DNA of 64,000 nt from Verrucomicrobiota bacterium. Lineage in GTDB: Bacteria > Verrucomicrobiota > Verrucomicrobiia > Limisphaerales > Palsa-1400. Position numbers and translations under genes: made by a program. Within the stretch, counting starts at the first letter, position 1. Every line of letters begins with the position of its first letter. This document shows positions 28,297 through 39,989 of this stretch, one piece after another. The stretch lies in contig JBEKVM010000029.1 of assembly GCA_049513975.1 (NCBI GenBank), positions 12,783 through 76,782 of the forward strand, written 5' to 3'. A model generated the notes under the pieces. It did not search any database, was not told the origin of the DNA, and saw only the letters and a list, made by a program, of their open reading frames with translations.

Positions 28297-28373
28297 CCGG
28301 AGCGTAGCTCAGCCTGGTAGAGCACTTGGTTTGGGACCAAGACGTCGCAGGTTCAAATCCTGTCGCTCCGACC
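28297..28373 (+). tRNA. tRNA-Pro(TGG), canonical, CCA encoded
   Basis: CGGAGCG-TA-GCTC-AGCCTGGTA-GAGC-A-CTTGG-TTTGGGA-CCAAG-ACGTC-GCAGG-TTCAAAT-CCTGT-CGCTCCG-A-CCA. D-loop GG and T-loop TTCAAAT are present. Confidence 0.95.
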
Positions 28374-29637: not shown

Positions 29638-29861
29638 ATTTTGCTCCTCTGGGGGAAATTCCCCCTTTGCTCGCGCATCCGCTCAAGAAACGCCTCAATA
29701 TCGCTTTGCATCAATCCCACCGCGCGGCCCACCCTCACCAAATGCGGCAGTTCGCCCCGGTCCGTCATCCGCCGCACCGACCGCACGCAAACACCCAGGC
29801 TGGCCGCAACCTCTCGCAATCTCATAACCCGGTCCAGTTTCTTTTCGCCTTCACCATTCAT
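29634..29861 (-). CDS. AlpA/excisionase-like helix-turn-helix protein
   Basis: MRLREVAASLGVCVRSVRRMTDRGELPHLVRVGRAV.. Overlaps the integrase start by 4 nt. Confidence 0.7.
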   Translation of the reverse strand: MNGEGEKKLDRVMRLREVAASLGVCVRSVRRMTDRGELPHLVRVGRAVGLMQSDIEAFLERMREQRGNFPQRSKI

Positions 29862-29877
29862 TTTTATCCTTTCATAC

Positions 29878-30393
29878 TCAAACCACCAGCCGACTTTCCA
29901 GATACGGCTTGGCCTTCTGCCGGGTTTCCGTGTTGATACAAAACCACTTCGCCCGAAGAATTCTGTCCGCCGACACGACATCCTCTTTCAGGAACAGCTT
30001 GGCACCCAGCCGGCCAAGCGGATTCCCAATGGCCTTGTCAATGTGACTCTCGTAAGCGACCCGGCTCTTGAACAAAAAGGCGAATGCCTCGGATTTCACC
30101 CAATTGGCAATGATCCGCGCGGAAGGCTCGATTGTGTCAAAAAACGCATTCCAACTCTTTTTGGGGTCGTTGAGCGCCTTCGTGATCGTGACGGCGCTTA
30201 ATTTGACGCCCTGTTCTTCCAGCAGGAACCGGCTGATTGCCCGCGCACTCATTCTTTGCGACGCCTCGAAAAGAAACGGGAACATTTCGATCACCAGCCC
30301 GCGATGGGCGGTGAACTCTGTTGATTTTGCGTGCCCGACCAATTTCAGGCCGATGTCAGTCGCACTCGTTGTTTTTTGATGGTCTTGTGCCAT
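29878..30393 (-). CDS. Hypothetical protein (island cargo)
   Basis: 171-aa ORF on the same strand as the island genes. No motif recognised. Confidence 0.45.
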   Translation of the reverse strand: MAQDHQKTTSATDIGLKLVGHAKSTEFTAHRGLVIEMFPFLFEASQRMSARAISRFLLEEQGVKLSAVTITKALNDPKKSWNAFFDTIEPSARIIANWVKSEAFAFLFKSRVAYESHIDKAIGNPLGRLGAKLFLKEDVVSADRILRAKWFCINTETRQKAKPYLESRLVV

Positions 30394-30580
30394 ATTGTTG
30401 GTGATCTTAACACCCTTATCAACCTTGTCAACCCCCTATTTTCAACAATTTTAAACACCGAGACCATGCCGCCACCCCCACCTCTGATAAAGGCATTTTC
30501 CCCGCGGCTCGTTCCCGTGTCGTCATCCGGCTTGCTAAAGGCAAGAAGGCCAAGCCGGATGCCAACACGCGAACGCTCCG

Positions 30581-30773
30581 CCCCGACAAGTGCCTGGTGG
30601 TGAAGTCGCTGGATTCCAGCTTGCGCCCTGTTTCCCCTTCGCAACATGGAATCCACCGCCATCACCACCAGGGAGTTGAAGGCAGCGCGGGCAGGCCGCT
30701 TTTGCGGGTCTCAATGATGTTTTCCGCTGTCGCGGAGGGGGAGAAATCAGACTGTGCCGTCACTCCATCTCCG
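30581..30773. repeat. R-module copy 2
   Basis: See 22394..22600. Confidence 0.7.
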
Positions 30774-30922
30774 AGGCCGCGAGGGACGATAACGCACGGA
30801 TGACGCCTAACACGGAAAGCTGAACCACCGCCGACTCGCGACGTGAGCCGCGTTAGCGAAACGGCAAGCGCCACCGGCGGTTCGCTCCGGCGACTTCGTT
30901 AGCCCACGGTGTCTTCACATTT

Positions 30923-31165
30923 CTAATGTCTCTTCCGCTCCCGGTCATAGTGCAGCTTCGTCGCAAAAGCCGCGACCACCAGAATCGGAACAGTGGCGAG
31001 AAGCCAAGGCAGTTCACGAGCGCCGAAGAGGGCCAGTGCGGCGAAGACGCCGATGACAAAATAGACACTCTCCCGACGATAACAGCACTGGCGATAGCTG
31101 CGACCGGAAGAACAAGCACAAGGCTCAATGAACTTCTTCGCCAGCCATGCCTTCGGACTTTTCAT
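30923..31165 (-). CDS. Small membrane protein with SEC-C-type Cys motif
   Basis: CACSSGRSYRQCC followed by two hydrophobic helices. Confidence 0.45.
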   Translation of the reverse strand: MKSPKAWLAKKFIEPCACSSGRSYRQCCYRRESVYFVIGVFAALALFGARELPWLLATVPILVVAAFATKLHYDRERKRH

Positions 31166-31287
31166 TGCAGTGTGCTTGGTGGCCTAAAGAAAAAAGCTGA
31201 ACCACCGCCGACCCGTGACGTGAACCGCGACAGCAGCACGAAAAGCGCCAACGGCGGTTGGCTCCGGCGACTTGTTTGGCGATGGGG

Positions 31288-31563
31288 TCATGACCTGAGT
31301 TCCGTGATGGCATAATAACCATACCTACCCAGTAAAATAATGGGGAAAACGCATAGGAGGCCTGCAACAACTCGCTGCCACATCACACCGTGGCGTAGCA
31401 CCGGAGCAACAAATAGCAATGCGAGACCGGCAAGTCCAAGATTCTCAAAATACCAAGAATCCGGATTTCTGTAGTCCTTAATGATGTAGCTAATGCGGCT
31501 CCAAAGAAACCACTGAACCGCGATGGCCCCAACGAACGCGAAAAGTGGATAGTTCTTTCTCAT
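31288..31563 (-). CDS. Small polytopic membrane protein
   Basis: 91 aa with three hydrophobic segments, AT-richer sequence. Confidence 0.45.
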   Translation of the reverse strand: MRKNYPLFAFVGAIAVQWFLWSRISYIIKDYRNPDSWYFENLGLAGLALLFVAPVLRHGVMWQRVVAGLLCVFPIILLGRYGYYAITELRS

Positions 31564-31566
31564 CCC

Positions 31567-31722
31567 AGAAGGATGTCGCCGCCGGCACCCAAAATCAAGC
31601 CTTTAATGCCGTTAATGCAGTTGTTCGTTTCAAATCAGCAGAGGGAACAACCGCTTTGCACCGGCCTGCCGAAGCCGGGGCACCGAACCGAGCAACGCCG
31701 GAATCCGCTCCATCCAAAATTC
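31567..31722. repeat. S-module copy 2 (Rep 3' end plus conserved leader)
   Basis: See 24001..24147. Confidence 0.7.
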
Positions 31723-32937
31723 AACGCCAGCAAATAGTTTGACAGTGAAATCCCGCGAGAACAACTGCCCCTTCCGCATCTTCGCCCGTTTCTCCTTCGG
31801 ACAGGTCGCCATGCGGTAACGGCGCATCACCCGGCGCAGTTTCAACGCCTGCCCGTTCGTCAACTCCAGTACATCCCGCCGACCGAGAGGCAGATTCTTG
31901 CGGCCAACAATGCCCCAAAACCGACCCGGCTTCGCGGACCAAATGCACTCGCCAATCTTCGCAACATACTTCTTCGCCGCGTACGCGAAGGCCCCACGCT
32001 TCGAGCCAAGCGTCTGAACCGACGTGCCCGCACGATAATGCTTCACCTCGCCGCTCCCAACCACGTCAAACCAATTCCGCGCAAACCAATTCGCAATCGA
32101 ATCTCCGTTCACCACAGACGGACACTTGCCATGCGGCTCCACACGAATGGCACACCATTCCTCGCGCTCATCCACCAAGGCACTGTGACCCTCCACCCAT
32201 TCGCCCCCGGCCAAAACATCCTCATCCCACACAACCACAAGTCCAATCATTCGGCGGCGCAAACGAACTTGCTCGGTCCGCATGGTCTTCCACTCGAAAC
32301 CCCACGGCACGCCCCAGACAAACGCATGGATATGCGGCGCGATCTTCCCCTTGTTCACCCCGCTTTTGCGAGGTTGAAATTCTAGCTTCCACATCAAACA
32401 GCCGTCAGGAAACCGACGGGCGAACCGCTTTGACATCGTATCAATGTGCCGCTTCACCTGTTCGCCATCCCAGGCGTAACGGTCAAACTCATCAGGATAC
32501 GTCAGACCCGCCATGAACGGCACCGCGCCATCTTCCACCTTCGCCAAGTAATCCAACATCCGCCGCCGTGACGCCGCCGTGAACTCCTCAATTTCGCCAC
32601 GCTCACCACCGCGACGCTCAGGCCCGCGCAAATGTCCCTCAGAACGGCACCGCAATTCCATGAAGCTCGCGTTGCGATAAACTTGCAACATGCCCTTGCT
32701 CGTATTTCGCGGTGAATTATGCACCTTAGACAAGCCAGGGCGAACGCATGTGGTCGGCGGCCAGGCGGCCGGTGAACCGTCCACCTGGCCACCGACCCGC
32801 ATTGCGGCGACAACGGCGGCAGCCTGCTCGAATGTAGTGACCGGGGAGGAATCGAAGGAATCATTGCGCACAATCCACCCCCAAACGCGACGCCCCAAGG
32901 AAAGTTGGCCCTCCCGCATCGTCCGTTGACACCACAT
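31630..32937 (-). CDS. Putative HUH-type rolling-circle replication initiator
   Basis: HUH-like APHIHAFVWG and Tyr motif AFAYAAKKYVAK. The start codon is not resolved. Confidence 0.55.
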   Translation of the reverse strand: MWCQRTMREGQLSLGRRVWGWIVRNDSFDSSPVTTFEQAAAVVAAMRVGGQVDGSPAAWPPTTCVRPGLSKVHNSPRNTSKGMLQVYRNASFMELRCRSEGHLRGPERRGGERGEIEEFTAASRRRMLDYLAKVEDGAVPFMAGLTYPDEFDRYAWDGEQVKRHIDTMSKRFARRFPDGCLMWKLEFQPRKSGVNKGKIAPHIHAFVWGVPWGFEWKTMRTEQVRLRRRMIGLVVVWDEDVLAGGEWVEGHSALVDEREEWCAIRVEPHGKCPSVVNGDSIANWFARNWFDVVGSGEVKHYRAGTSVQTLGSKRGAFAYAAKKYVAKIGECIWSAKPGRFWGIVGRKNLPLGRRDVLELTNGQALKLRRVMRRYRMATCPKEKRAKMRKGQLFSRDFTVKLFAGVEFWMERIPALLGSVPRLRQAGAKRLFPLLI

Positions 32938-33193
32938 TCCGCCGCAGAACCGGCGAGCAAAATGGCTCGCTGTCCGGTTCTGCTCGTTCTATTTCGCCGC
33001 CGTGCCGCCCTGGTATCACTGGCCCCCCTTGTCTGTGGCCGTGCTGGCAATGGCGAGGATTGCCACTTTGAGCGCCGCGTTGAGCCGGGGCCATGCCTTG
33101 ACTACTTGGGACAGGTCATGTAAGGAAGTGACCGGAGTTTGTGAGTCTCCTTGTGAGTCTCGCGTTGTAACTCCTTGATTATCAGCAGGCGGA

Positions 33194-33221
33194 GGCAGGT
33201 TCAAATCCTGTCGCTCCGACC
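33194..33221 (+). repeat. attR: duplicated tRNA-Pro 3' end
   Basis: Identical 28 bp to 28346..28373. Confidence 0.9.
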
Positions 33222-33346
33222 ACTTCATGACCCAGGGCTGGGGTTGGATTACCGGGTCGCCCGATCTGCAAATTCGCTCTTGCAGTTGGGTCGCTTTGAA
33301 TTGACAGCTTGGGAGAGCGAGCTTTTTGGCCCGCCCTCCCGGTGTT

Positions 33347-33931
33347 TTATTCCTTCACGAACAGCCTCCATTCGGGAATGCGGTGGGCGTTGCGGATGAG
33401 GGCGGAGGCCGGCAGCTCCTTGGGCGCGCGCGGCACGCGGAGCAATTTCAAGCCGGCTTCGTGGGGAAGGCGGTTGCCTTTGCGGGCGTTGACGTCTTTG
33501 CCGGCCCAAACCAGATTTTCCCAGGCGTTCTTGCCGCCGCGCGAACGGGGCAGGACGTGATCGAGGCTGCCATCTTCAGGGCGCAGGACGCGGCCGGTGT
33601 ATTGGCAGCGGTTGCCGTCGCGCTCGCGGATGGCGCGGGCGCAGAGCTTCGGGCGCTTCTTGGGCACCTTGGCGTAATTGACCGCGACGATGACCGTGGG
33701 CACACGGACCGGACCGCGGACGGTCCGCACGGCGTTGTCCTGCGGACGAATGGGCAGCGTGATCCACTCGTCCCAGGTCACGGGACGGATGTGGTTTTGG
33801 CCTTCGATGTCCAGAGCGGTCGCCACGTTGGTGGCCATCATGCAGAAGGCCTCCTGCGGCGTGCGAACGTTGACGGCCTGCCAGTTGCGGTTGAGCACCA
33901 GCACGAGCGATTTGTTCAGTATGTCATTCAT
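33347..33931 (-). CDS. HNH endonuclease
   Basis: Start MNDILNKS (ATG at 33931). HNH core CQYTG....LDHVLPRSRGGKNAWENLVWAGKDVNARKGN. Same strand as, and immediately downstream of, the tRNA-like array. Confidence 0.8.
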   Translation of the reverse strand: MNDILNKSLVLVLNRNWQAVNVRTPQEAFCMMATNVATALDIEGQNHIRPVTWDEWITLPIRPQDNAVRTVRGPVRVPTVIVAVNYAKVPKKRPKLCARAIRERDGNRCQYTGRVLRPEDGSLDHVLPRSRGGKNAWENLVWAGKDVNARKGNRLPHEAGLKLLRVPRAPKELPASALIRNAHRIPEWRLFVKE

Positions 33932-33937
33932 AAATTC

Positions 33938-34027
33938 AGTGATGAGTGGAGAGTGGAGAGTGATGAATGAAAAACCCGGCACTCCGCATTTCCCACTCTG
34001 CGCCCTGCACTCCCGACTCTGCATTTT
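33938..34027. repeat. Heptad-repeat hairpin a
   Basis: GAGTGGA/GAGTGAT/GAATGAA heptads face CACTCTG/CACTCCC/GACTCTG heptads. Confidence 0.7.
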
Positions 34028-34072: not shown

Positions 34073-34147
34073 TGGCTGCCCCGCCTGGTTTTGCTCCAGG
34101 TCCTCCGGTTTCAGAGACCGGCGCACTCCTGAGTATGCAACGAGGCA
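34073..34147 (-). tRNA. tRNA-like Gln(CTG), CCA encoded
   Basis: TGCCTCG-TT-GCAT-ACTCAGGA-GTGC-G-CCGGT-CTCTGAA-ACCGG-AGGA-CCTGG-AGCAAAA-CCAGG-CGGGGCA-G-CCA. U1:A72 and G73. Confidence 0.7.
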
Positions 34148-34148
34148 A

Positions 34149-34222
34149 TGGTCGCCCGGGAAGGTTCTGCCCCTTCGATTTCTGGGTGTAGGCCGGACGT
34201 GATTCTATTTCACCACCGGGCG
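34149..34222 (-). tRNA. tRNA-like Val(TAC), CCA encoded
   Basis: CGCCCGG-TG-GTGA-AATAGAA-TCAC-G-TCCGG-CCTACAC-CCAGA-AATC-GAAGG-GGCAGAA-CCTTC-CCGGGCG-A-CCA. C33. Confidence 0.65.
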
Positions 34223-34240
34223 ATTTTGAGTTAAGAATTT

Positions 34241-34304
34241 GGAATGCGGAGTGCGGAATGAAGACGCCCCACTCTGCATTCTGCATTCTTCATTCTGCAT
34301 TTCC
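34241..34304. repeat. Heptad-repeat hairpin b
   Basis: GGAATGCGGAGTGCGGAATGAAGA...CTCTGCATTCTGCATTCTTCATTCTGCATTTCC. Confidence 0.75.
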
Positions 34305-34307
34305 GAG

Positions 34308-34381
34308 TGGCTGCCGGGGCTGGAGTTGCACCAACATATGCGCCTTCAAAGGGCGCTGTCCTACGATTAGACGACCCGGCA
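34308..34381 (-). tRNA. tRNA-like Gln(TTG), CCA encoded
   Basis: TGCCGGG-TC-GTCT-AATCGTA-GGAC-A-GCGCC-CTTTGAA-GGCGC-ATAT-GTTGG-TGCAACT-CCAGC-CCCGGCA-G-CCA. U1:A72 and G73. Confidence 0.75.
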
Positions 34382-34390
34382 AATGGGAAA

Positions 34391-34469
34391 TGATGAAGGA
34401 TGGAGGATGAAGGAAGAATTGAGGGCCGCTGCGATGTTTTGACTTCATCCTTCTTCCTTCATCCTTCTT
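34391..34469. repeat. Heptad-repeat hairpin c
   Basis: GATGAAGGATGGAGGATGAAGGAAGAA...TTCATCCTTCTTCCTTCATCCTTCTT. Confidence 0.75.
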
Positions 34470-34479
34470 ACTGGAAGAG

Positions 34480-34553
34480 TGGTGGCCCGCCAGGGTAACG
34501 CTCCCTGTTCAACGGCTTAAAAGACCGTTGCATCACTTTAATGCTTGCAGGCC
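34480..34553 (-). tRNA. tRNA-like Lys(TTT), CCA encoded
   Basis: GGCCTGC-AA-GCAT-TAAAGTG-ATGC-A-ACGGT-CTTTTAA-GCCGT-TGAA-CAGGG-AGCGTTA-CCCTG-GCGGGCC-A-CCA. A8. Confidence 0.75.
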
Positions 34554-34557
34554 ATGA

Positions 34558-34651
34558 CGATTGCGGATTGGCGATTGCGGATTGCGGATTTGAAGACAAA
34601 GGTCCGGCTGTCCGGGCGCGCTCTCAATTCGCAATTCGCAATCCGCAATTG
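34558..34651. repeat. Heptad-repeat hairpin d
   Basis: GATTGCGGATTGGCGATTGCGGATTGCGGATT...AATTCGCAATTCGCAATCCGCAATT. Confidence 0.75.
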
Positions 34652-34656
34652 AAAGA

Positions 34657-34728
34657 TGGAGCCTCCAGCCGGTGCTGCCCCGGCACGAATTCTTTACAAA
34701 AGAAATCCACAGGCTGCTGCATGGAGGC
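34657..34728 (-). tRNA. tRNA-like Thr(TGT), CCA encoded, reduced D-arm
   Basis: GCCTCCA-TG-CAGCAGCCTGTGGA-TTTCT-TTTGTAA-AGAAT-TCGT-GCCGG-GGCAGCA-CCGGC-TGGAGGC-T-CCA. Confidence 0.55.
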
Positions 34729-34766
34729 GCATTGGCTCGACGGGCCGTAGCTCGAAGAGCGAAGGC

Positions 34767-34838
34767 TGGTCGCAGTCCCCAGTGCTGCCCTGGGCAGAGC
34801 GGGCGTATGAAACCTGCCTGAGCGCTGGCTCGACTGCG
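34767..34838 (-). tRNA. tRNA-like with CAT anticodon (Met/Ile2 type), weak anticodon stem
   Basis: CGCAGTC-GA-GCCAGCGCTCAGG-CAGGT-TTCATAC-GCCCG-CTCTG-CCCAG-GGCAGCA-CTGGG-GACTGCG-A-CCA. Confidence 0.45.
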
Positions 34839-34883
34839 GTGGGCGAATGGCCGTCTTGGGGAAGGGCTTCACACGACCGAAAT

Positions 34884-34993
34884 TGGCGTCCCTGACCGGC
34901 TTTGCTCCCGCCTACGTTCAGATGCTACGGCGGGCAAGCCGGTGATCTCCTGCATGAGAGGCAGGCGTGTTGGCTGGGCTACACTACAGGGAT
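34884..34993 (-). tRNA. tRNA-like Glu(CTC) with about 39-nt hairpin insertion in the T-loop
   Basis: ATCCCTG-TA-GTGT-AGCCCAGCCA-ACAC-G-CCTGC-CTCTCAT-GCAGG-AGATC-ACCGG-[39 nt, CCCGCC..GGCGGG hairpin]-CCGGT-CAGGGAC-G-CCA. Confidence 0.4.
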
Positions 34994-34998
34994 GGAAT

Positions 34999-35090
34999 TG
35001 GTGCGCGCGTCCGGTAACGCTCCGGAACCCGGCACTGATCTAGTGCGATGCGGGGTATAAAGCCGCCGGCTCTCTTTGAGCTACGCGCGC
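34999..35090 (-). tRNA. Class II (long variable arm) tRNA-like, anticodon ambiguous (TAT best fit, TTA alternative)
   Basis: GCGCGCG-TA-GCTC-AAAGA-GAGC-CG-GCGGC-TTTATAC-CCCGC-ATC-GCACT-AGATC-AGTGC-CGGGT-TCCGG-AGCGTTA-CCGGA-CGCGCGC-A-CCA. Confidence 0.5.
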
Positions 35091-35095
35091 GCAAA

Positions 35096-35183
35096 TGGCG
35101 GAATGCCGTGGAGTTGCGCCACATGCCCGAAGGCACGCACTCGTTAGCACCGAGGCCCGGCTCGCTCGTCCGGTTGACATTCC
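35096..35183 (-). tRNA. tRNA-like Ser(GCT), class II, CCA encoded
   Basis: GGAATGT-CAA-CCGG-ACGAGCGAG-CCGG-GC-CTCG-GTGCTAA-CGAG-TGC-GTGCC-TTCG-GGCA-TGTGG-CGCAACT-CCACG-GCATTCC-G-CCA. Confidence 0.65.
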
Positions 35184-35186
35184 AAA

Positions 35187-35261
35187 TGGTGCCCGTGGCA
35201 GGACTTGCGCCTGCACTGTCGAAGGTTTGAGCTTCGCGCCTCTGCCTTGGGCTACACGGGC
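35187..35261 (-). tRNA. tRNA-like Leu(CAA) with short (class I) variable loop
   Basis: GCCCGTG-TA-GCCC-AAGGCAG-AGGC-G-CGAAG-CTCAAAC-CTTCG-ACAGT-GCAGG-CGCAAGT-CCTGC-CACGGGC-A-CCA. Confidence 0.75.
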
Positions 35262-35264
35262 TGT

Positions 35265-35339
35265 TGGTGCCCACGGCCGGATTTGCACCGACACTGGGCG
35301 CGTTTTAAGTGCGCTGTCTCTGCGTTGGACTACATGGGC
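35265..35339 (-). tRNA. tRNA-like Leu(TAA) with short variable loop
   Basis: GCCCATG-TA-GTCC-AACGCAG-AGAC-A-GCGCA-CTTAAAA-CGCGC-CCAGT-GTCGG-TGCAAAT-CCGGC-CGTGGGC-A-CCA. Confidence 0.7.
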
Positions 35340-35343
35340 AAGT

Positions 35344-35419
35344 TGGTACCGCGTGAAGGAATTGCACCCTCAACCTTCCCGTTCTGAGCGGGACGCCTCT
35401 GCTGTTGGGCTAACGCGGC
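35344..35419 (-). tRNA. tRNA-like Leu(CAG) with short variable loop
   Basis: GCCGCGT-TA-GCCC-AACAGCAG-AGGC-G-TCCCG-CTCAGAA-CGGGA-AGGTT-GAGGG-TGCAATT-CCTTC-ACGCGGT-A-CCA. Confidence 0.75.
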
Positions 35420-35425
35420 CTGGAT

Positions 35426-35501
35426 TGGCACTCCCGGAAGGACTCTCACCCTCATCTTCGACGTTCGAAGCGTCGCGCTCTGGTGATTGAGCTACGGGAG
35501 C
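35426..35501 (-). tRNA. tRNA-like Arg(TCG), CCA encoded
   Basis: GCTCCCG-TA-GCTC-AATCACCA-GAGC-G-CGACG-CTTCGAA-CGTCG-AAGAT-GAGGG-TGAGAGT-CCTTC-CGGGAGT-G-CCA. Confidence 0.75.
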
Positions 35502-35503
35502 GG

Positions 35504-35610
35504 GAAGAAGTGCAAAATGCGGAATGCAGAATGCAGAATGAAATGCCGCACACCATGCCTTGCCTTCGGGATGGTCTCACTCTGCATTCTTCACTCTCAA
35601 TTCTCCATTC
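35504..35610. repeat. Heptad-repeat hairpin e
   Basis: GAAGTGCAAAATGCGGAATGCAGAATGCAGAATGAAATG...CACTCTGCATTCTTCACTCTCAATTCTCCATTC. Confidence 0.75.
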
Positions 35611-35614
35611 GAAA

Positions 35615-35689
35615 TGGTGGGTTGCCGCGGAATTGCACCGCGTTCTCGCCGGTTAAGAGCCGGGACTTCACTGTAAAAGTTTGCAACCC
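35615..35689 (-). tRNA. tRNA-like Lys(CTT), CCA encoded
   Basis: GGGTTGC-AA-ACTT-TTACAGTG-AAGT-CCCGG-CTCTTAA-CCGGC-GAGAA-CGCGG-TGCAATT-CCGCG-GCAACCC-A-CCA. A8. Confidence 0.7.
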
Positions 35690-35691
35690 GG

Positions 35692-35768
35692 ACGCGACGC
35701 GATGGCGGAGTTGAACCGCCGCAGCCAGGTCTGTGAGGCCCTTGCCGGCACCGGTGTTCGCGTCGCGT
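35692..35768 (-). other. Hairpin element: 11-bp closing stem enclosing a T-arm with a canonical-type loop, not a cloverleaf
   Basis: Plus-strand arms ACGCGACGCGA (35692..35702) and TCGCGTCGCGT (35758..35768) pair. The minus sense contains GGCGG-TTCAACT-CCGCC. No anticodon arm could be found. Confidence 0.4.
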
Positions 35769-35819
35769 AAGTAATAATCGTCGTTGTTGATTGTCTCCAA
35801 AGGACGTAACAATCCAGGC

Positions 35820-36581
35820 ATGACGATTCCGGCTGAATTGCTGCAACGCCTGGCCGCCGCCAAAAGCGTGACGGTGCTGACGGGCGCCGGCGTGTCGGCG
35901 GAAAGCGGGGTCCCCACATTTCGCGATGCCCAGACCGGGCTGTGGGCGAAATTCAGTCCCGAAGAACTGGCCACGCCGCGCGCCTTCCGGCGAAATCCCC
36001 GCCTGGTTTGGGAATGGTATGAATGGCGGCGTGAGCTTGTCGCCGCCGCCAAGCCAAACCCGGCGCACCTCGCCCTGGCAGAAATGGAGAAGGTCTTTCC
36101 GCGGTTCCATCTCATCACGCAAAACGTGGACGGTCTGCATCAACGCGCTGGAAGCCGGCGGGTCATCGAACTGCACGGCAATATCATGCGCACGAAATGT
36201 TTTGACGAGGGCACGCTGGTTTCGAGTTGGAAAGACACCGGCGATGTCCCGCCGAAATGCCCGGCCTGTGGCGGCTGGTTGCGCCCCGACGTGGTTTGGT
36301 TTGAAGAGGCAATGCCGGAAGCGGAGATGGCACAGGCCGCGACGGCGAGCACGCATTGCGACGTCTTTTTTTCCATCGGCACGTCCACTGTTGTTTATCC
36401 CGCGGCCGCCCTGCCAGCGGAAGCGTTGCGCAGCGGGGCGACCGTGGCGGAGATCAATCCGCAACCCACACCATTCACGCCGCAGGCGCATTTTGCTCTG
36501 GCTGGGGCGGCCGGGGTTGTGTTGCCCGAATTGATGGAGGGCCTCAACGCCGTGCGTGGCGGGCTGCGCGCGTCGTCGTAG
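35820..36581 (+). CDS. cobB: Sir2-family NAD-dependent protein deacylase (CobB-like)
   Basis: GAGVSAESGVPTFRD, QNVDGLHQRAG, Zn ribbon C..C...CPACGG, FFSIGTS. Start MTIPAELL at 35820. Opposite strand to the array. Confidence 0.85.
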   Translation: MTIPAELLQRLAAAKSVTVLTGAGVSAESGVPTFRDAQTGLWAKFSPEELATPRAFRRNPRLVWEWYEWRRELVAAAKPNPAHLALAEMEKVFPRFHLITQNVDGLHQRAGSRRVIELHGNIMRTKCFDEGTLVSSWKDTGDVPPKCPACGGWLRPDVVWFEEAMPEAEMAQAATASTHCDVFFSIGTSTVVYPAAALPAEALRSGATVAEINPQPTPFTPQAHFALAGAAGVVLPELMEGLNAVRGGLRASS

Positions 36582-36636
36582 GCCCACCTCCGCTCTACGA
36601 GCTACGGCGGCCAACCTTCGCCGCGGCGAAGGTTGG
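36582..36636 (-). repeat. Partial E-type repeat with a perfect 12-bp hairpin that pairs the CCA of the Cys tRNA-like
   Basis: CCAACCTTCGCC-GC-GGCGAAGGTTGG (36611..36636) followed by CCGCCGTAGCTCGTAGAGCGG, homologous to the E repeats. Abuts the sirtuin stop codon. Confidence 0.55.
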
Positions 36637-36708
36637 AATCCCGTGCTGGAATTGCACCAGCCTTTGCGGTTCTGCAGACCGCCGCCTGAGCTGCTCGGCC
36701 AACGGGAC
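36634..36708 (-). tRNA. tRNA-like Cys(GCA), CCA encoded
   Basis: GTCCCGT-TG-GCCG-AGCAGCTCA-GGC-G-GCGGT-CTGCAGA-ACCGC-AAAG-GCTGG-TGCAATT-CCAGC-ACGGGAT-T-CCA. U73. Confidence 0.75.
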
Positions 36709-36720
36709 GCACTTCAAAAT

Positions 36721-36795
36721 TGGGGTGACCAACCGGAGTTGCACCGGCACAAACGCCGTCACGGGGCGTGATGCTGCTGTTACATCATGATCACC
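36721..36795 (-). tRNA. tRNA-like His(GTG) with encoded G-1 and C73
   Basis: (G-1)GTGATCA-TG-ATGT-AACAGCA-GCAT-C-ACGCC-CCGTGAC-GGCGT-TTGT-GCCGG-TGCAACT-CCGGT-TGGTCAC-C-CCA. C33. Confidence 0.75.
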
Positions 36796-36798
36796 ATG

Positions 36799-36892
36799 GC
36801 AAAAGTGCAAAGTTGTGAACGCAAAGTGCAGAGTGGAAGGCACCATGTTCGCGTCCTTCCATTCTTCACTCTGCATTCTGCCTTCTTCACTC
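36799..36892. repeat. Heptad-repeat hairpin f
   Basis: AAAGTGCAAAGTTGTGAACGCAAAGTGCAGAGTGGAAGG...CCTTCCATTCTTCACTCTGCATTCTGCCTTCTTCAC. Confidence 0.7.
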
Positions 36893-36895
36893 AAA

Positions 36896-36971
36896 TGGAG
36901 CCCCTGGCCGGACTCGCACCGGCGGATACGAGTTTACGAAACTCGCCCTGTTGCTGCTGAGGCACGGGGGC
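36896..36971 (-). tRNA. tRNA-like Thr(CGT), CCA encoded
   Basis: GCCCCCG-TG-CCTC-AGCAGCAAC-AGGG-CGAGT-TTCGTAA-ACTCG-TATCC-GCCGG-TGCGAGT-CCGGC-CAGGGGC-T-CCA. U73, as in the other Thr unit. Confidence 0.65.
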
Positions 36972-36973
36972 GG

Positions 36974-37099
36974 GAAAGAAAGGATGAAGGATGAAGGCTG
37001 AAGGCTAAAGTAAAGGCAAAAGCGAGCGATCAACAAGAGATTCTAATGCTCGCTGAGCAATCTTTTCCTTCATCCTTCATACTTCTTCCTTCTTACTTC
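36974..37099. repeat. Heptad-repeat hairpin g
   Basis: AAGGATGAAGGATGAAGGCTGAAGGCTAAAG...CCTTCATCCTTCATACTTCTTCCTTCTTACTTC. Confidence 0.7.
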
Positions 37100-37104
37100 A
37101 AAAC

Positions 37105-37150
37105 TGGCGCTCTCACATGGATTTGCACCATGAGGTTCTGGCTTCGTTAC
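37105..37150 (-). pseudogene. 3' fragment of a tRNA-like unit (CCA, acceptor strand, T-arm CATGG-TGCAAAT-CCATG), truncated at the adjacent CDS
   Basis: Plus strand TGG-C-GCTCTCA-CATGG-ATTTGCA-CCATG. No matching 5' acceptor strand. The region beyond 37147 is the 3' end of the ORF. Confidence 0.45.
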
Positions 37151-37719
37151 GGCCAAACACTCGCCCGGTTTGTCGCCAGGTTGTCGAGAATCCAGGTTTT
37201 GTTGCGAAGCGGAAAAAGAGTTAATCTCGACATGTTGTCAACATTACTGGCGGCCTCCCGGACCTCGGCCATATTCGGCAGGCGGACGTAATTGCTGCCT
37301 TCGATCATCACCTGGGGTGCTCGGTGCTCCATGTAGTCCCGTACGTAGCTGCCCAGGGAGCCGCTGTTCGGCGGCCAGTCCGAGGACCGTGGAAGATTCG
37401 TGGAACCACTCCGAAGATCAACGACAAATACCAACATGGACGTGTCGTCGTCGTCCACACACAAGAAGCGTTTGCCGTCCGCAAAAGCATAGAGACAAAG
37501 AGGACAATCAAAAAAGTCGCCCCATATACTGAACAACTTGGTTTCGCCGGCATAGACGGGATATTCCTTGTCCCCCCACCACAGAGGTGCTGGGAGCTTG
37601 ACAGCCGCCACGACTTTCCCGTTTGCGCGAAGCTTCACACTGCGCGTTCCCAATAGCTGCCATAGCGCCAAGCCAATGGCGGCGACTATGAGAATAAGAA
37701 TGACGATTCGTCGTTTCAC
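37147..37719 (-). CDS. Hypothetical membrane-anchored protein
   Basis: MKRRIVILILIVAAIGLALW anchor. Lower GC. Sits inside the array on the array strand. Confidence 0.5.
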   Translation of the reverse strand: MKRRIVILILIVAAIGLALWQLLGTRSVKLRANGKVVAAVKLPAPLWWGDKEYPVYAGETKLFSIWGDFFDCPLCLYAFADGKRFLCVDDDDTSMLVFVVDLRSGSTNLPRSSDWPPNSGSLGSYVRDYMEHRAPQVMIEGSNYVRLPNMAEVREAASNVDNMSRLTLFPLRNKTWILDNLATNRASVWP

Positions 37720-37810
37720 GATGTGCAGCGCCTGGAATCTATAAGCCTGGAACGCCCCTCGTAGCCATCATAAATTCGGGCTGACTCAGTTTCTTGCATT
37801 TAGAGCAAAT

Positions 37811-37888
37811 TGGCATCCGTGATCGGACTCGCACCGATTAGGCCCGGCTTGAAAGACCGGCTGCTCGATCTGCTTTGCATTCACGGAC
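37811..37888 (-). tRNA. tRNA-like Glu(TTC), CCA encoded, enlarged D-loop
   Basis: GTCCGTG-AA-TGC-AAAGCAGATCGA-GCA-G-CCGGT-CTTTCAA-GCCGG-GCCTA-ATCGG-TGCGAGT-CCGAT-CACGGAT-G-CCA. Confidence 0.65.
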
Positions 37889-37909
37889 TAATTGCGCAGG
37901 ACTGAGAAT

Positions 37910-37984
37910 TGGCCCCCGAGGTTGGTATCGCGCCAACGTCTCCTCCTCTTCAGGGAGGCGCTAATCTTCCTCAGCTACCCGGGG
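37910..37984 (-). tRNA. tRNA-like Phe(GAA), CCA encoded
   Basis: CCCCGGG-TA-GCTG-AGGAAGATT-AGC-G-CCTCC-CTGAAGA-GGAGG-AGAC-GTTGG-CGCGATA-CCAAC-CTCGGGG-G-CCA. Confidence 0.75.
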
Positions 37985-37990
37985 AATGAA

Positions 37991-38062
37991 TGGCCCGGTA
38001 GAGGGAGACTCTGTCGAGCTGTGACTAAATCGAGTCAGGGTTCGACGGAGTCTCCCTACCGG
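37991..38062 (-). ncRNA. CCA-terminated rod-like hairpin (acceptor-like stem stacked on a 7-bp stem, no cloverleaf)
   Basis: CCGGTAG-G-GAGACTC-C-GTCGA-ACCC-TGACT-CGATTT-AGTCA-CAGC-TCGAC-A-GAGTCTC-CCT-CTACCGG-G-CCA. Confidence 0.4.
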
Positions 38063-38070
38063 GAAAAGTA

Positions 38071-38141
38071 TCGTCCCGGCAGGTAATGCTCCTGCGTCTT
38101 CCGGTTATCAGCCGGGCGCTCTGCTCTTGAGCTACAGGACG
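38071..38141 (-). tRNA. tRNA-like Ile(GAT), the only member without an encoded CCA
   Basis: CGTCCTG-TA-GCTC-AAGAGCA-GAGC-G-CCCGG-CTGATAA-CCGGA-AGAC-GCAGG-AGCATTA-CCTGC-CGGGACG-A, followed by TAC. Confidence 0.7.
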
Positions 38142-38287
38142 GTGGTTAGTTGCGGTTTCAGGCCGAAGCGTTTGGCGGGGCGGAACACGATGTTCAGCTT
38201 GCCGATTGGCCGGATGCGCATGGCCCGATTTAGTTGGCAGCGCTTGCGAAAGAGCAACTGGCTTTGACAGCGGACAATGGGTTTCAT
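38132..38287 (-). CDS. Possible 51-aa very basic small ORF (below the ORF-track cutoff)
   Basis: ATG at 38287 with AAAGG 8 nt upstream. MKPIVRCQSQLLFRKRCQLNRAMRIRPIGKLNIVFRPAKRFGLKPQLTTVL*. The stop codon lies inside the 5' end of the Ile tRNA-like. Confidence 0.25.
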   Translation of the reverse strand: MKPIVRCQSQLLFRKRCQLNRAMRIRPIGKLNIVFRPAKRFGLKPQLTTVL

Positions 38288-38316
38288 GGGATTACCTTTC
38301 GTTAAGGGTTTGGAAT

Positions 38317-38418
38317 TGGCTTGCCGGGCCGAAGCCGCTTCCGGGAGGAGACATGGCCCGTCTTGGCTTCGCTTCGACGCGGCAGCCTGCGCCGCCCGCT
38401 GATGGAGGCGGCGAAAGC
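38317..38418 (-). repeat. E repeat copy 1 (CCA-terminated structured repeat plus hairpin)
   Basis: Family shared with 38919.., 39193.. and 39468... The plus strand starts AATTGGC(C/T)TGCC and ends GGCGAA(A/G)GCTGG. Confidence 0.6.
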
Positions 38419-38509
38419 TGGCGGAAGGCGTCGGTAACGCTCCGACCTCGGGTTTGAGCCGATCCTGTTTTCGGGACAGGCGCAGCCAGCTTATATCTGC
38501 CTGCCTTCC
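38419..38509 (-). tRNA. tRNA-like Ser(CGA), class II, CCA encoded
   Basis: GGAAGGC-AG-GCAG-ATATAAGCTGG-CTGC-G-CCTGT-CCCGAAA-ACAGG-A-TCGG-CTCAAAC-CCGA-G-GTCGG-AGCGTTA-CCGAC-GCCTTCC-G-CCA. C33. Confidence 0.7.
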
Positions 38510-38513
38510 TTAA

Positions 38514-38588
38514 GTGGAGAGTTGGGAGTAAAGAGTGTAGAATCGAAAATGCCTGTATTCTGCACTCTGCACTTTGCACTCTGCATTC
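38514..38588. repeat. Heptad-repeat hairpin h
   Basis: GTGGAGAGTTGGGAGTAAAGAGTGTAGAATCG...TATTCTGCACTCTGCACTTTGCACTCTGCATTC. Confidence 0.7.
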
Positions 38589-38592
38589 AAAA

Positions 38593-38666
38593 TGGCTGCC
38601 AGACTTGGACTCGCACCAAGACAAGCGGCTTAACAGGCCGCCGTGCTACTTTGACACCACCTGGCA
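38593..38666 (-). tRNA. tRNA-like Asn(GTT), CCA encoded
   Basis: TGCCAGG-TG-GTGT-CAAAGTAG-CAC-G-GCGGC-CTGTTAA-GCCGC-TTGT-CTTGG-TGCGAGT-CCAAG-TCTGGCA-G-CCA. Confidence 0.75.
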
Positions 38667-38668
38667 AT

Positions 38669-38745
38669 TGGCGCTGCCGGCAGGATTTGCACCCGCATAA
38701 GTTCGTTTAGAAGACGAACGCCTCATCTCGTTCGGCCACGGCAGC
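38669..38745 (-). tRNA. tRNA-like Arg(TCT), CCA encoded
   Basis: GCTGCCG-TG-GCCG-AACGAGATGA-GGC-G-TTCGT-CTTCTAA-ACGAA-CTTAT-GCGGG-TGCAAAT-CCTGC-CGGCAGC-G-CCA. Confidence 0.75.
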
Positions 38746-38754
38746 TTTTGGAAA

Positions 38755-38830
38755 TGGTCGGAATGGCAGGGTTTTCACCTGCGGCCTCCCGGTCCCAAGC
38801 CGGGTGCTCTAAAGACTGAGCTACATTCCG
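38755..38830 (-). tRNA. tRNA-like Pro(TGG), CCA encoded
   Basis: CGGAATG-TA-GCTC-AGTCTTTA-GAGC-A-CCCGG-CTTGGGA-CCGGG-AGGCC-GCAGG-TGAAAAC-CCTGC-CATTCCG-A-CCA. Confidence 0.75.
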
Positions 38831-38837
38831 TGAAGAA

Positions 38838-38913
38838 TGGCGGACCCGAAGGGAGTTGCACCCTCAACCCTCCCGCAGACAACGGGGCGCTCTGCTGATT
38901 GAGCTACGAGTCC
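38838..38913 (-). tRNA. tRNA-like Asp(GTC), CCA encoded
   Basis: GGACTCG-TA-GCTC-AATCAGCA-GAGC-G-CCCCG-TTGTCTG-CGGGA-GGGTT-GAGGG-TGCAACT-CCCTT-CGGGTCC-G-CCA. Confidence 0.7.
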
Positions 38914-38918
38914 GAAAT

Positions 38919-39019
38919 TGGCCTGCCCGCCGAAGCTGCGCAGGACGAGGCGTAAAGCCCGCCTTCGCTAAAGCTACGGCGCGGCAGCCTTCGCCCGCCG
39001 TTGCACAGCGGGCGAAGGC
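38919..39019 (-). repeat. E repeat copy 2
   Basis: Minus sense: GCCTTCGCCCGC-TGTGCAACG-GCGGGCGAAGGC hairpin, then CTGCCGCGCCGTAGCTTTAGCGAAGGCGGGCTTTACGCCTCGTCCTGCGCAGCTTCGGCGGGCAG-G-CCA. Confidence 0.65.
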
Positions 39020-39107
39020 TGGTGGGAAGTGCTGGTAACGCTCCAGTCGTCGCTTCCGACATGTTTTGAGACGTCCGGGTTACGGCCGGATTGCCGGATC
39101 ACTTCCC
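39020..39107 (-). tRNA. tRNA-like Tyr(GTA)?, 88 nt, D-arm reduced, long extra arm
   Basis: GGGAAGT-GA-TCCGGCAA-TCCGG-CCGTAAC-CCGGA-CGTCTCAAAACATGTCGGAAGCGACG-ACTGG-AGCGTTA-CCAGC-ACTTCCC-A-CCA. C33. Alternative folds are possible. Confidence 0.45.
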
Positions 39108-39113
39108 TGAAAT

Positions 39114-39186
39114 TGGTAGCGGGGGTGGGAGTTGCGCCCACGGAGGCAGAGCTTATGAGGCTCGCCTGAATCTCATTCTCCCCGCA
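39114..39186 (-). tRNA. tRNA-like Met-type (CAT), 1:72 mismatch, tiny D-loop
   Basis: TGCGGGG-A-GAAT-GAG-ATTC-AGGC-GAGC-CTCATAA-GCTC-TGCCTCC-GTGGG-CGCAACT-CCCAC-CCCCGCT-A-CCA. Confidence 0.55.
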
Positions 39187-39192
39187 GTGAAA

Positions 39193-39293
39193 TGGCCTGC
39201 CAGCCGTAGCTGTGCAGGACGAGGCGTAACGTCGGCCTTCGCTAAAGCTACGGCGCGGCAGCCTTCGCCCGCCGTTGCACAGCGGGCGAAGGC
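39193..39293 (-). repeat. E repeat copy 3
   Basis: Near-identical to copy 2 over the hairpin and the CGGCGCGGCAGCCTTCGCCCGCCGTTGCACAGCGGGCGAAGGCTGG block. Confidence 0.65.
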
Positions 39294-39368
39294 TGGTGGA
39301 GTCGGTGGGTAACGCTCCCACATCGGCTTGCTTGCAGGGCAAGTGCATTGCTTGTCTGCCACGACCCC
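39294..39368 (-). tRNA. tRNA-like Ala(TGC) with G3:U70
   Basis: GGGGTCG-TG-GCA-GACAAGCAA-TGC-A-CTTGC-CCTGCAA-GCAAG-CCGAT-GTGGG-AGCGTTA-CCCAC-CGACTCC-A-CCA. Position 3 G pairs with position 70 T. C33. Confidence 0.75.
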
Positions 39369-39383
39369 ATAAAGTCAAAAGAA

Positions 39384-39457
39384 TGGCAAGCCGCCCTGGT
39401 GCTGCCCCAGGCAAGCTGAGTTTTGGAGACTCTGCTGCACAGGCTGGTGCGCGACTT
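39384..39457 (-). tRNA. tRNA-like Trp(CCA), CCA encoded
   Basis: AAGTCGC-GCAC-CAGCCT-GTGC-AGCA-GAGT-CTCCAAA-ACTC-AGCTTG-CCTGG-GGCAGCA-CCAGG-GCGGCTT-G-CCA. Confidence 0.6.
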
Positions 39458-39467
39458 GTTTTGGAAT

Positions 39468-39567
39468 TGGCCTGCCAGCCGCAGCCGCGCAGGAGGAAAC
39501 GAAAAGCCCGCCTTCGCTGAAGCTGCGGCGGGCAGCCTTCACCCGTTGACATGCAGCGGGGGAAGGC
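39468..39567 (-). repeat. E repeat copy 4 (most diverged)
   Basis: The plus strand starts AATTGGCCTGCCAGCCGCAGCCGCGCAGG and ends GCAGCGGGGGAAGGCTGG. Confidence 0.55.
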
Positions 39568-39641
39568 TGGTGCGGTTGCCGGGAGTTGCGCCCGGACTTC
39601 CTCCGTGGCGGGGAGGCATTCTGCTGTTAAATCACAACCGC
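39568..39641 (-). tRNA. tRNA-like Gly(GCC), CCA encoded
   Basis: GCGGTTG-TG-ATTT-AACAGCAG-AAT-G-CCTCC-CCGCCAC-GGAGG-AAGT-CCGGG-CGCAACT-CCCGG-CAACCGC-A-CCA. C33. Confidence 0.75.
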
Positions 39642-39651
39642 GAAATTAGAA

Positions 39652-39679
39652 GGGCCGGGAGCGTTGCTGCTCCCGGCCC
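39652..39679. other. 11-bp perfect GC-rich hairpin 10 nt upstream of the first array unit
   Basis: GGGCCGGGAGC-gttgct-GCTCCCGGCCC. Confidence 0.6.
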
Positions 39680-39989
39680 ATGCCATTTCAACAAAGAACA
39701 AACACCTCTTGGCGATCTAAGCGATCCCAACCCGCGGTTTCACGGCGGCTGTTTCGGTGTTTAGGGGCACACCTCCTGCAAAGCCCTTAATATGTAAATC
39801 TAAAATTCGTCCTGTTCGTCCTGGGGACGTTGTCTTCCGGTCGTGGGCAGACCCCGCCGGTGAGGCTTCTCTGCTCGTCCCCGCCAAATTCAATTTGTCG
39901 CCAGAAGACATCACCTGGATGTCGCGTTATTCTTGTTCACAGATTGTCCATTTATCGTTGTTAATCGTTCACAGTCATGCTTTTCAGGG

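Follow-up and report, generated by a model that had tools for sequence, protein, structure and literature searches.

According to excerpts of one study (PMC8421152), long tRNA arrays that spread by horizontal transfer, the L-arrays, occur in Verrucomicrobia and Planctomycetes among the phyla reported. Their prototype is the trn operon on plasmid delta of Anabaena/Nostoc sp. PCC 7120, as given in parts of two papers (Tran et al., 2016, PMC4758250; Santamaria-Gomez et al., 2021, PMC8421152); in excerpts of the latter, 23 of its 26 tRNAs are aminoacylated in vivo and a homing endonuclease is co-regulated with them. Here we describe a tRNA array in a stretch of 64,000 nucleotides from contig JBEKVM010000029.1 of a Verrucomicrobiota bacterium; the whole of this stretch is called the window below. 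The minus strand of the window carries, over 5.6 kb (34073-39641), 30 intact tRNA units and one disrupted unit, and all 20 amino acids are represented among them. We consider it likely that these units are working tRNAs, charged by the cognate synthetases of the host and probably serving as an extra pool for translation, in an L-array that has spread horizontally.

In the Anabaena L-array, as in the window, tens of co-oriented tRNA genes lie a few to a few hundred bases apart, many of them with an encoded CCA, beside a homologous HNH homing-endonuclease gene (a relative of all8564). The layout of L-arrays, about 20-43 tRNA genes on one strand with co-transcribable spacing, is likewise found at 34073-39641, the run being broken by one opposite-strand SIR2 gene and one 190-aa open reading frame (ORF). 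The units of the two arrays also share idiosyncrasies: Leu of class-I length, U73 in Thr, the acceptor CCCC in Phe and GGGGTC in Ala, and U1:A72 in Gln and Asn. In a tblastn comparison the HNH protein of the window matches the HNH gene that heads the Nostoc PCC 7120 trn operon (E 4e-13, 42% identity, aa 105-200), and the L-arrays and the relatives of the window array are alike in their patchy spread across phyla. The HNH homology together with the Anabaena-like idiosyncrasies of the units thus places the window array among the L-arrays: judged from its sequence, it is an L-array, on a branch whose units nearly all have A18 in the D-loop and G55 in the T-loop. The Anabaena units, in contrast, have a GG D-loop and a TTC T-loop in all but one case. 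Also peculiar to the lineage of the window are C33 units, a non-cloverleaf Tyr, a long-armed Ile(UAU), a leader RNA and a 51-aa ORF; neither these nor the changed elbow were found mentioned in excerpts of the L-array papers.

Phage tRNA clusters, such as that of T4 with SegB, are also described systems in which tRNAs stand beside a homing endonuclease (excerpts of PMC8421152 and PMC13096335). Arrays with the same elbow, together with HNH homologues, occur on IMG/VR viral contigs of up to 343 kb. In contrast to the phage clusters, however, the array has no phage structural genes near it in the window, and an integrase element of the window ends before the array begins. Canonical bacterial elongator tRNAs share with the array units the cloverleaf, the 7-bp acceptor stem and the 5-bp T stem; the array departs from them in the replacement of G18/U55, in Gly A73, in Phe G73 with G37, in its short Leu units and in an Arg anticodon GCG rather than ACG.

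Identity determinants in the window and in related arrays

The bacterial tRNA identity sets are reportedly brought together in compilations by Giege and co-workers. A preliminary description of this DNA had listed acceptor-end determinants for several of the units, and all of these were recovered when the units were parsed. The Ala(TGC) unit at 39294-39368 has G3:U70 (acceptor GGGGTCG/CGACTCC) and A73; the His(GTG) unit at 36721-36794 (acceptor GTGATCA/TGGTCAC) has an encoded G-1, the G at 36795, opposite C73; the Cys(GCA) unit at 36634-36708 has U73; and Gln(UUG) at 34308-34381 and Gln(CUG) at 34073-34147 each have U1:A72 and G73. G73 is present in Asn, Asp, both Glu and both Ser units, and A73 in two Lys, three Leu, Val, two Ile, Pro and Tyr units and, for Met, in both units with the anticodon CAU. 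Further acceptor-stem determinants are found in the Trp, Pro, Gly, Thr, Ser, Glu and Ile units (Table 1), and the acceptor-stem set is present in the window and predominant across the family of related arrays, with the exception of Gln, where C3:G70 stands in place of G3:C70.

The claim that these features amount to the bacterial synthetase set holds for most units, with exceptions that had been left unlisted. By the strict Escherichia coli rule for the discriminator base (N73), 26 of the 30 window units match, or 28 with Thr U73 counted as a match; the exceptions are Gly (A), Phe (G) and two Thr units (U). That such matches might arise by chance had been raised in the same description, and was tested by shuffling the 30 discriminators among the 30 units 200,000 times. 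The shuffles gave 13.0 matches on average, a baseline of about 43%, and none of them reached 26. With one unit per amino acid, 17 of 20 match, a value attained in 5 of 200,000 shuffles.

The determinants are kept across diverged arrays. A genome collection was scanned for two G55-type T-arms 60-90 nt apart, which returned 119 loci, and the family set was made up of 36 arrays besides that of the window, each having at least seven units with non-TTC T-loops, with 476 units in total (one unit with a stop anticodon was left out). These arrays lie mostly in metagenome-assembled genomes of Verrucomicrobiota and Planctomycetota; related arrays were found in Verrucomicrobiota, Planctomycetota, Acidobacteriota, Myxococcota, Cyanobacteria and viral contigs. 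In the genome arrays A73 is invariant in Ala (18/18), Ile (29/29), Lys (21/21), Leu (33/33) and Val (26/26) and is found in 30 of 31 Pro units; G73 is invariant in Asp (21/21), Asn (26/26), Trp (6/6) and Ser (5/5) and is found in 23 of 26 Gln units; U73 marks 23 of 24 Cys and 33 of 38 Thr units. U73 is the family norm for Thr, and it is also found in the canonical units of these loci. Among the acceptor pairs, C1:G72 is present in all Pro units (32/32), A1:U72 in all Trp units (6/6) and C4:G69 in 16 of 30 Ile units family-wide. G3:U70 occurs in every Ala unit (19/19, window included) and in none of the 479 non-Ala units, though G.U pairs are seen at every other acceptor position. A G at position -1 precedes 14 of 24 His units, as against 18 of 474 units of other classes.

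Over the 36 arrays the strict N73 rule is matched by 379 of 476 units, compared to 212 +/- 8.8 when N73 is shuffled within arrays, that is, about 19 standard deviations (SD) above the shuffles. The arrays themselves are typically 70-80% identical in nucleotide sequence, and between units of the same class the identity is 0.40-0.65 in the 5' strand of the acceptor stem and 0.35-0.61 in the anticodon-stem strand. The pairwise identity of N73 is 1.00 in nine classes (Ala, Asp, Ile, Lys, Leu, Asn, Val, Trp and Ser). N73 and G3:U70 are therefore kept on stems that have diverged and still pair, a sign of purifying selection that maintains cognate charging.

The viral contigs repeat this picture. The same two-T-arm pattern gave 120 viral loci with 586 G55-type units (L122-L241), in which Ala has A73 in 24 of 25 and G3:U70 in 25 of 25 units. 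A73 is found in Ile (28/28), Lys (32/32), Leu (59/61), Pro (33/33), Val (33/33) and Tyr (13/13), G73 in Asp (14/14) and Asn (16/16), and U73 in Cys (22/22) and Thr (54/58).

It had been argued from the window alone that the RNAs are chargeable rather than random tRNA-shaped repeats, and the shuffles, the family-wide conservation of N73, the viral set and the compensated core described below all speak for that proposal; the in vivo aminoacylation of 23 of the 26 tRNAs of the homologous Anabaena array (PMC8421152) provides a precedent. In the mechanism that we envisage, each unit would keep the acceptor-end and anticodon determinants read by the cognate synthetase of the host and would be charged with the amino acid that its anticodon specifies, and the charged array tRNAs would form a supplementary or conditional pool for translation. 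We infer such charging and participation in translation, as well as a functional role of the changed elbow, from comparison of sequences.

The rewired elbow

In canonical tRNAs the elbow is formed by G18-G19 of the D-loop and T54-Psi55-C56 of the T-loop. The array units lack this combination. Of the 30 intact units in the window, 28 have N-G-C at T-loop positions 54-56, with UGCRANU, AGCGUUA, GGCAGCA and CGCGAUA as common loops; Pro and Arg(UCG) have UGA there. All 21 array units of the window that the parser resolved have a non-TTC T-loop. The D-loop ends in AGCA or AGUA, as opposed to GGUA or GGCA in canonical tRNAs. Over all parsed units the two changes go together: U55 occurs together with GG in the D-loop in 187 of 187 units, and G55-C56 together with AG in 446 of 476 units (Fisher p ~1e-133). 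The association persists within seven mixed arrays (54/54 for U55 with GG, 51/57 for G55 with AG), and in the viral set an AG D-loop accompanies 518 of the 586 G55-type units. G19:C56 is retained alongside A18/G55. Arg units form an exceptional class, with G55 followed by A56 or G56 and with AU-rich D-loops.

This covariation indicates that the odd core is a concerted, compensated swap of G18/U55 to A18/G55 and not a product of decay. With the 18/55 swap compensated and G19:C56 kept, the elbow, and hence the L-shape, is probably maintained, which fits the charging proposed above. We also considered a two-base-pair kissing interaction between GC of the D-loop and G55-C56 of the T-loop, and dropped it: GC is present in only 62% of D-loops, and the A18-G19/G55-C56 covariation fits the data far better.

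Mitochondrial-type tRNAs depart from G18-G19 and T54-Psi55-C56 yet are charged. The array differs from them in that it shows one specific compensated swap with G19:C56 kept and with regular, G+C-rich stems; the elbow is not lost. No description of an A18/G55 elbow or of non-canonical array tRNAs was found in the literature searched.

Layout, leader RNA and surroundings of the array

The units were located by a scan for a 7-bp acceptor stem, an adjoining 5-bp T-stem with a 7-nt loop, and NCCA; their structures were assigned by a cloverleaf parser, and irregular units were resolved by RNAfold together with homologues. Default tools recover only part of them. ARAGORN reports 16 array tRNAs, on the minus strand in a cluster at 34.3-39.4 kb, and the Rfam tRNA model RF00005 matches 18 array units, 17 of them above the gathering threshold of 29 bits (38-64 bits) and Ile(UAU) just below it (28.2 bits). 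The RF00005 search did not detect the tRNA-Ala unit at 39294-39368; missed or below threshold besides were Trp, Tyr, both Ser, both Glu, both Lys, Thr(UGU) and both CAU units. By the same cloverleaf parser, a tRNA-Pro is the only canonical tRNA and the sole plus-strand unit in the whole window. The features are listed in Table 1.

Table 1. Array units and neighbouring features of the window, from the leader of the array downstream (N73, discriminator base; ARAGORN, Rfam, parser and RNAfold, methods by which units were identified or resolved)
Feature	Position	Strand	Remarks
Structured leader RNA	39680-39795	-	Precedes the first tRNA; a strong hairpin (39652-39679) adjoins its 3' side
tRNA-Gly(GCC)	39568-39641	-	First unit of the array; C2:G71, G3:C70, A73; C33
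tRNA-Trp(CCA)	39384-39457	-	A1:U72, G73; very small D-arm; T-loop GGCAGCA; 12 homologues
tRNA-Ala(UGC)	39294-39368	-	Encoded CCA; T-loop AGCGUUA; C33; ARAGORN, parser
CAU-anticodon unit	39114-39186	-	U1.U72 mismatch (C1.U72 in L078), A73; RNAfold and homologues
tRNA-Tyr(GUA)-like	39020-39107	-	A73; without D-arm; RNAfold and homologues
tRNA-Asp(GUC), Pro(UGG), Arg(UCU), Asn(GUU), adjacent	38593-38913	-	Asp G73; Pro C1:G72, A73; Arg G73; Asn U1:A72, G73; ARAGORN, Rfam, parser
tRNA-Ser(CGA)	38419-38509	-	Long variable arm; acceptor G1-G2-A3; G73; parser
51-aa ORF	38141-38296	-	Ends where tRNA-Ile(GAU) starts
tRNA-Ile(GAU)	38071-38141	-	A73, C4:G69; CCA not encoded; ARAGORN, Rfam, parser
tRNA-Phe(GAA), Glu(UUC)	37811-37984	-	Phe C1:G72, G73; Glu U2:A71, G73; ARAGORN, parser
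Disrupted tRNA-Arg(GCG)	37105-37806	-	5' acceptor remnant near 37806; T-arm and 3' acceptor at 37105-37140
190-aa ORF	37147-37719		Between the halves of Arg(GCG)
tRNA-Thr(CGU), His(GUG), Cys(GCA)	36634-36971	-	Thr G1:C72, C2:G71, U73; ARAGORN, Rfam, parser
SIR2-family (CobB-like) gene	35784-36581	+	Mid-array, opposite strand
tRNA-like element	35693-35767	-	Just upstream of Lys(CUU)
tRNA-Lys(CUU), Arg(UCG), Leu(CAG), Leu(UAA), Leu(CAA), Ser(GCU)	35096-35689	-	Lys A73; Arg G73; Leu A73, all three without long variable arm; Ser G73, long arm; ARAGORN, Rfam, parser, RNAfold
tRNA-Ile(UAU)-like	34999-35090	-	Long variable arm; 5-nt D-loop; C4:G69, A73; 8 homologues
tRNA-Glu(CUC)	34884-34993	-	31-nt hairpin inserted in T-loop; A1.C72, U2:A71, G73; RNAfold
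Second CAU unit, tRNA-Thr(UGU), Lys(UUU), Val(UAC), two Gln	34073-34838	-	CAU A73; Thr U73; Lys A73; Val A73; ARAGORN, Rfam, parser, RNAfold
HNH homing-endonuclease gene	33347-33970	-	Directly downstream of the array; Pfam HNH_4/HNH_5
Integrative element	28298-33222		4.9 kb, in tRNA-Pro(UGG); 28-nt direct repeats at 28347-28374 and 33195-33222; tyrosine integrase, HTH_17 protein and Rep-like protein genes at 28309-32937
Canonical tRNA-Pro(UGG)	28298-28374	+	
X elements	39460-39567, 39190-39293, 38915-39019, 38320-38418, ~36590-36633, 34729-34766		Repeated element of about 100 nt
Long inverted repeats between units	34389-34472, 34560-34649, 35511-35607, 36817-36885, 36980-37084, 38002-38057		

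The leader RNA precedes the array in the window and in at least 18 other arrays. Its three helices (GGUGU/ACACC, CCGC/GCGG and a variable hairpin) all show compensatory changes across 19 arrays, and it has an invariant GGAGG at its 5' side and GGUGUUYGUUC at its 3' side. Rfam gave no match for it. It may be a regulatory element of the array. The possibility that it encodes a peptide was rejected, as no reading frame is conserved between arrays. A scan for promoter and terminator consensus sequences scored near the shuffle expectation.

At the other end, homologues of the HNH gene adjoin arrays in at least 24 genome loci and 15 viral loci. We rejected the idea that the array lies inside an integrase island at tRNA-Pro. 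The repeat of the 28-nt tRNA-Pro 3' end at 33195-33222 is the right-hand border of the integrative element, which therefore ends before the HNH gene and the array, so that the array lies outside it. No att repeat bounding the array was found in the window, and the GC content of the array is that of its flanks.

Several single units deserve comment. The CAU unit with the mismatched first pair is possibly initiator-like. In the Tyr(GUA) unit and its homologues (L074, L078, L081, L091, L053, L030), UCCGR at bases 10-14 forms a helix with YCGGA, which lies in the long stretch beyond the 3' side of the anticodon arm; two pairs of this helix show compensatory changes. The helix crosses a possible invariant GUC/GAC stem, and the motifs CAAAAC and GGAAG are kept in the unit and its homologues. 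The long variable-arm stem of Ile(UAU) covaries among the homologues, and its anticodon loop is closed by a C.C mismatch in the window and L063 copies. The two halves of the disrupted Arg(GCG) unit are about 640 bp apart; its counterpart is unbroken in loci L053 and L100, and the intervening 190-aa ORF has no Pfam match. The Arg anticodon GCG, in the loop NUGCGAA, recurs in at least 29 loci across phyla (L004-L115); the usual bacterial Arg anticodon is ACG.

The spaces between units hold further elements. The tRNA-like element upstream of Lys(CUU) combines an acceptor-like stem of 11 bp (CGCGACGCGAA/UUCGCGUCGCG) with a tiny D-arm, the loop CUCACAG and a canonical GGUUCAACUCC T-arm; it lacks CCA and is kept in six other arrays. 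The 51-aa ORF encodes a very basic protein (MKPIVRCQSQLLFRKRC...RFGLKPQLTTVL) that has no Pfam match and is conserved at the protein level (49-63% identity) in seven other arrays. The X elements stand directly after the CCA of five or six tRNAs and comprise a 15-bp hairpin, a long imperfect hairpin and GCCAAUU; they fold as two hairpins ending in GCCA, are nearly confined to the window and have no match in Rfam, and a hairpin related to them is the insert in the T-loop of Glu(CUC). The long inverted repeats set a purine-rich arm opposite a pyrimidine-rich arm, and their sequences all differ; they may be processing signals or terminators. Rfam gave no match for these inter-unit hairpins.

Alternative explanations and significance

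A number of observations weigh against the view that the units are fully working tRNAs. Gly, Ala, Ser(CGA), His, Val and Tyr of the window have C33 for the near-universal U33, as have 71 of 498 units in the family, mostly those of the classes Val, Ile, Ala and His. The window Leu units (35187-35419) are class-I in shape with a variable loop of 4-6 nt, the long arm being missing in 32 of 36 family Leu units, and most family Leu units have A37; the CUN-reading Leu tRNAs of bacteria have G37. Elsewhere position 37 is A or G in nearly all units, with G37 in most Pro and Phe units and variation in Asp. In bacteria Gly has U73, Phe A73 and Gln G3:C70, and E. coli Asp has C38. The window departs from the E. 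coli rules in Gly A73 and Phe G73, and its Asp has U37 and G38. Across the family N73 is mixed in Gly (A 21 and U 9 in genomes, U 28 and A 16 in viral contigs) and in Phe (A 19 and G 6, A 20 and G 7, respectively), about one third of His units lack G-1/C73, and one third of Glu units have A73. Of the core and tertiary determinants, which include the Leu long arm and tertiary set, Cys G15:G48, Arg A20, Asp C38 and Phe G20, the Leu long arm and Asp C38 are missing; the D-loops of Arg are A-rich, and the remaining positions would need a three-dimensional model for a reliable assignment. Tyr is not a cloverleaf, Glu(CUC) has its T-loop insert and one unit is disrupted; the long variable arm of Ile(UAU) is a further caution against fully canonical function. 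Finally, the anticodons leave some codons uncovered, and thus the array alone could not sustain translation.

Some of these departures give substance to an alternative that we nevertheless hold to be improbable, namely that the units are tRNA mimics, charged or chargeable, that act mainly outside translation. They would be decoys or sponges that draw off tRNA-cleaving toxins or defence nucleases, or donors of aminoacyl groups to other pathways, and would keep identity elements since a mimic must resemble its cognate tRNA. The altered elbow, C33 and the unusual position 37 could impair function on the ribosome, the arrays travel with phages and mobile elements, and in excerpts of the Anabaena study a sponge idea is put forward and cleavage of array tRNAs reported (PMC8421152). 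However, the same excerpts describe the Anabaena array tRNAs as possibly taking part in translation. In addition, all 20 amino acids are covered, compensatory changes maintain the anticodon stems, and the anticodon loops are otherwise canonical, almost all having A37 or G37, most of those of Pro having G37, and those of the Tyr homologues reading CUGUAAA. N73 and G3:U70 would moreover be needless for a decoy of anticodon nucleases, so that their conservation is less well explained by mimicry than by charging for translation.

A reading of the units as decaying tRNA pseudogenes or tRNA-derived repeats, with identity elements inherited from recent functional ancestors, is very unlikely. One unit is indeed disrupted, another has a T-loop insertion, and default finders miss many of them; yet the arrays are not very recent copies of one another, pairing, N73 and G3:U70 are kept on stems only about 50% identical between arrays, the core change is a coordinated 18/55 swap, and the pattern is common to about 1,060 G55-type units from two collections (476 genome and 586 viral). 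Even less credence can be given to a chance match that follows from discriminators rich in A and G. These two bases do make up most of the discriminators and set the considerable baseline of the shuffles, but both shuffling tests lie far from that baseline, and the rare determinants stand where they are expected: Cys has U73, His has C73 with G-1, and Ala has G3:U70.

Beyond a working L-array, a bolder proposal can be made, which we regard as possible though doubtful. The array would be a portable, near-complete alternative tRNA set with a rewired elbow and with all synthetase determinants kept, so that it would still be charged by the host while evading the readers of the canonical elbow; it would be gated by the leader and spread by the HNH endonuclease among bacteria of the Planctomycetes-Verrucomicrobia-Chlamydiae (PVC) group and large phages. 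Among the evaded readers of the elbow or T-loop could be the modification enzymes TruB and TrmA, tRNA nucleases or defence systems directed at the elbow, and elbow sensors such as the T-box.

Retention of identity elements is in itself what would be expected of working L-array tRNAs; it is the family-wide evidence, the elbow and the leader that add value to it. Standard tRNA finders miss one third to one half of such genes, and therefore tRNA counts for Verrucomicrobiota, Planctomycetota and large phages are too low. This branch of the L-arrays, with its leader RNA and its endonuclease, offers a compact system in which to ask what supernumerary mobile tRNA sets do. If our reading is true, the near-universal contact between G18 and pseudouridine 55 can be swapped in hundreds of natural tRNAs of all specificities with their synthetase identity kept, and the arrays would be a natural experiment that separates the parts of a tRNA needed for charging from the parts needed for its other partners.

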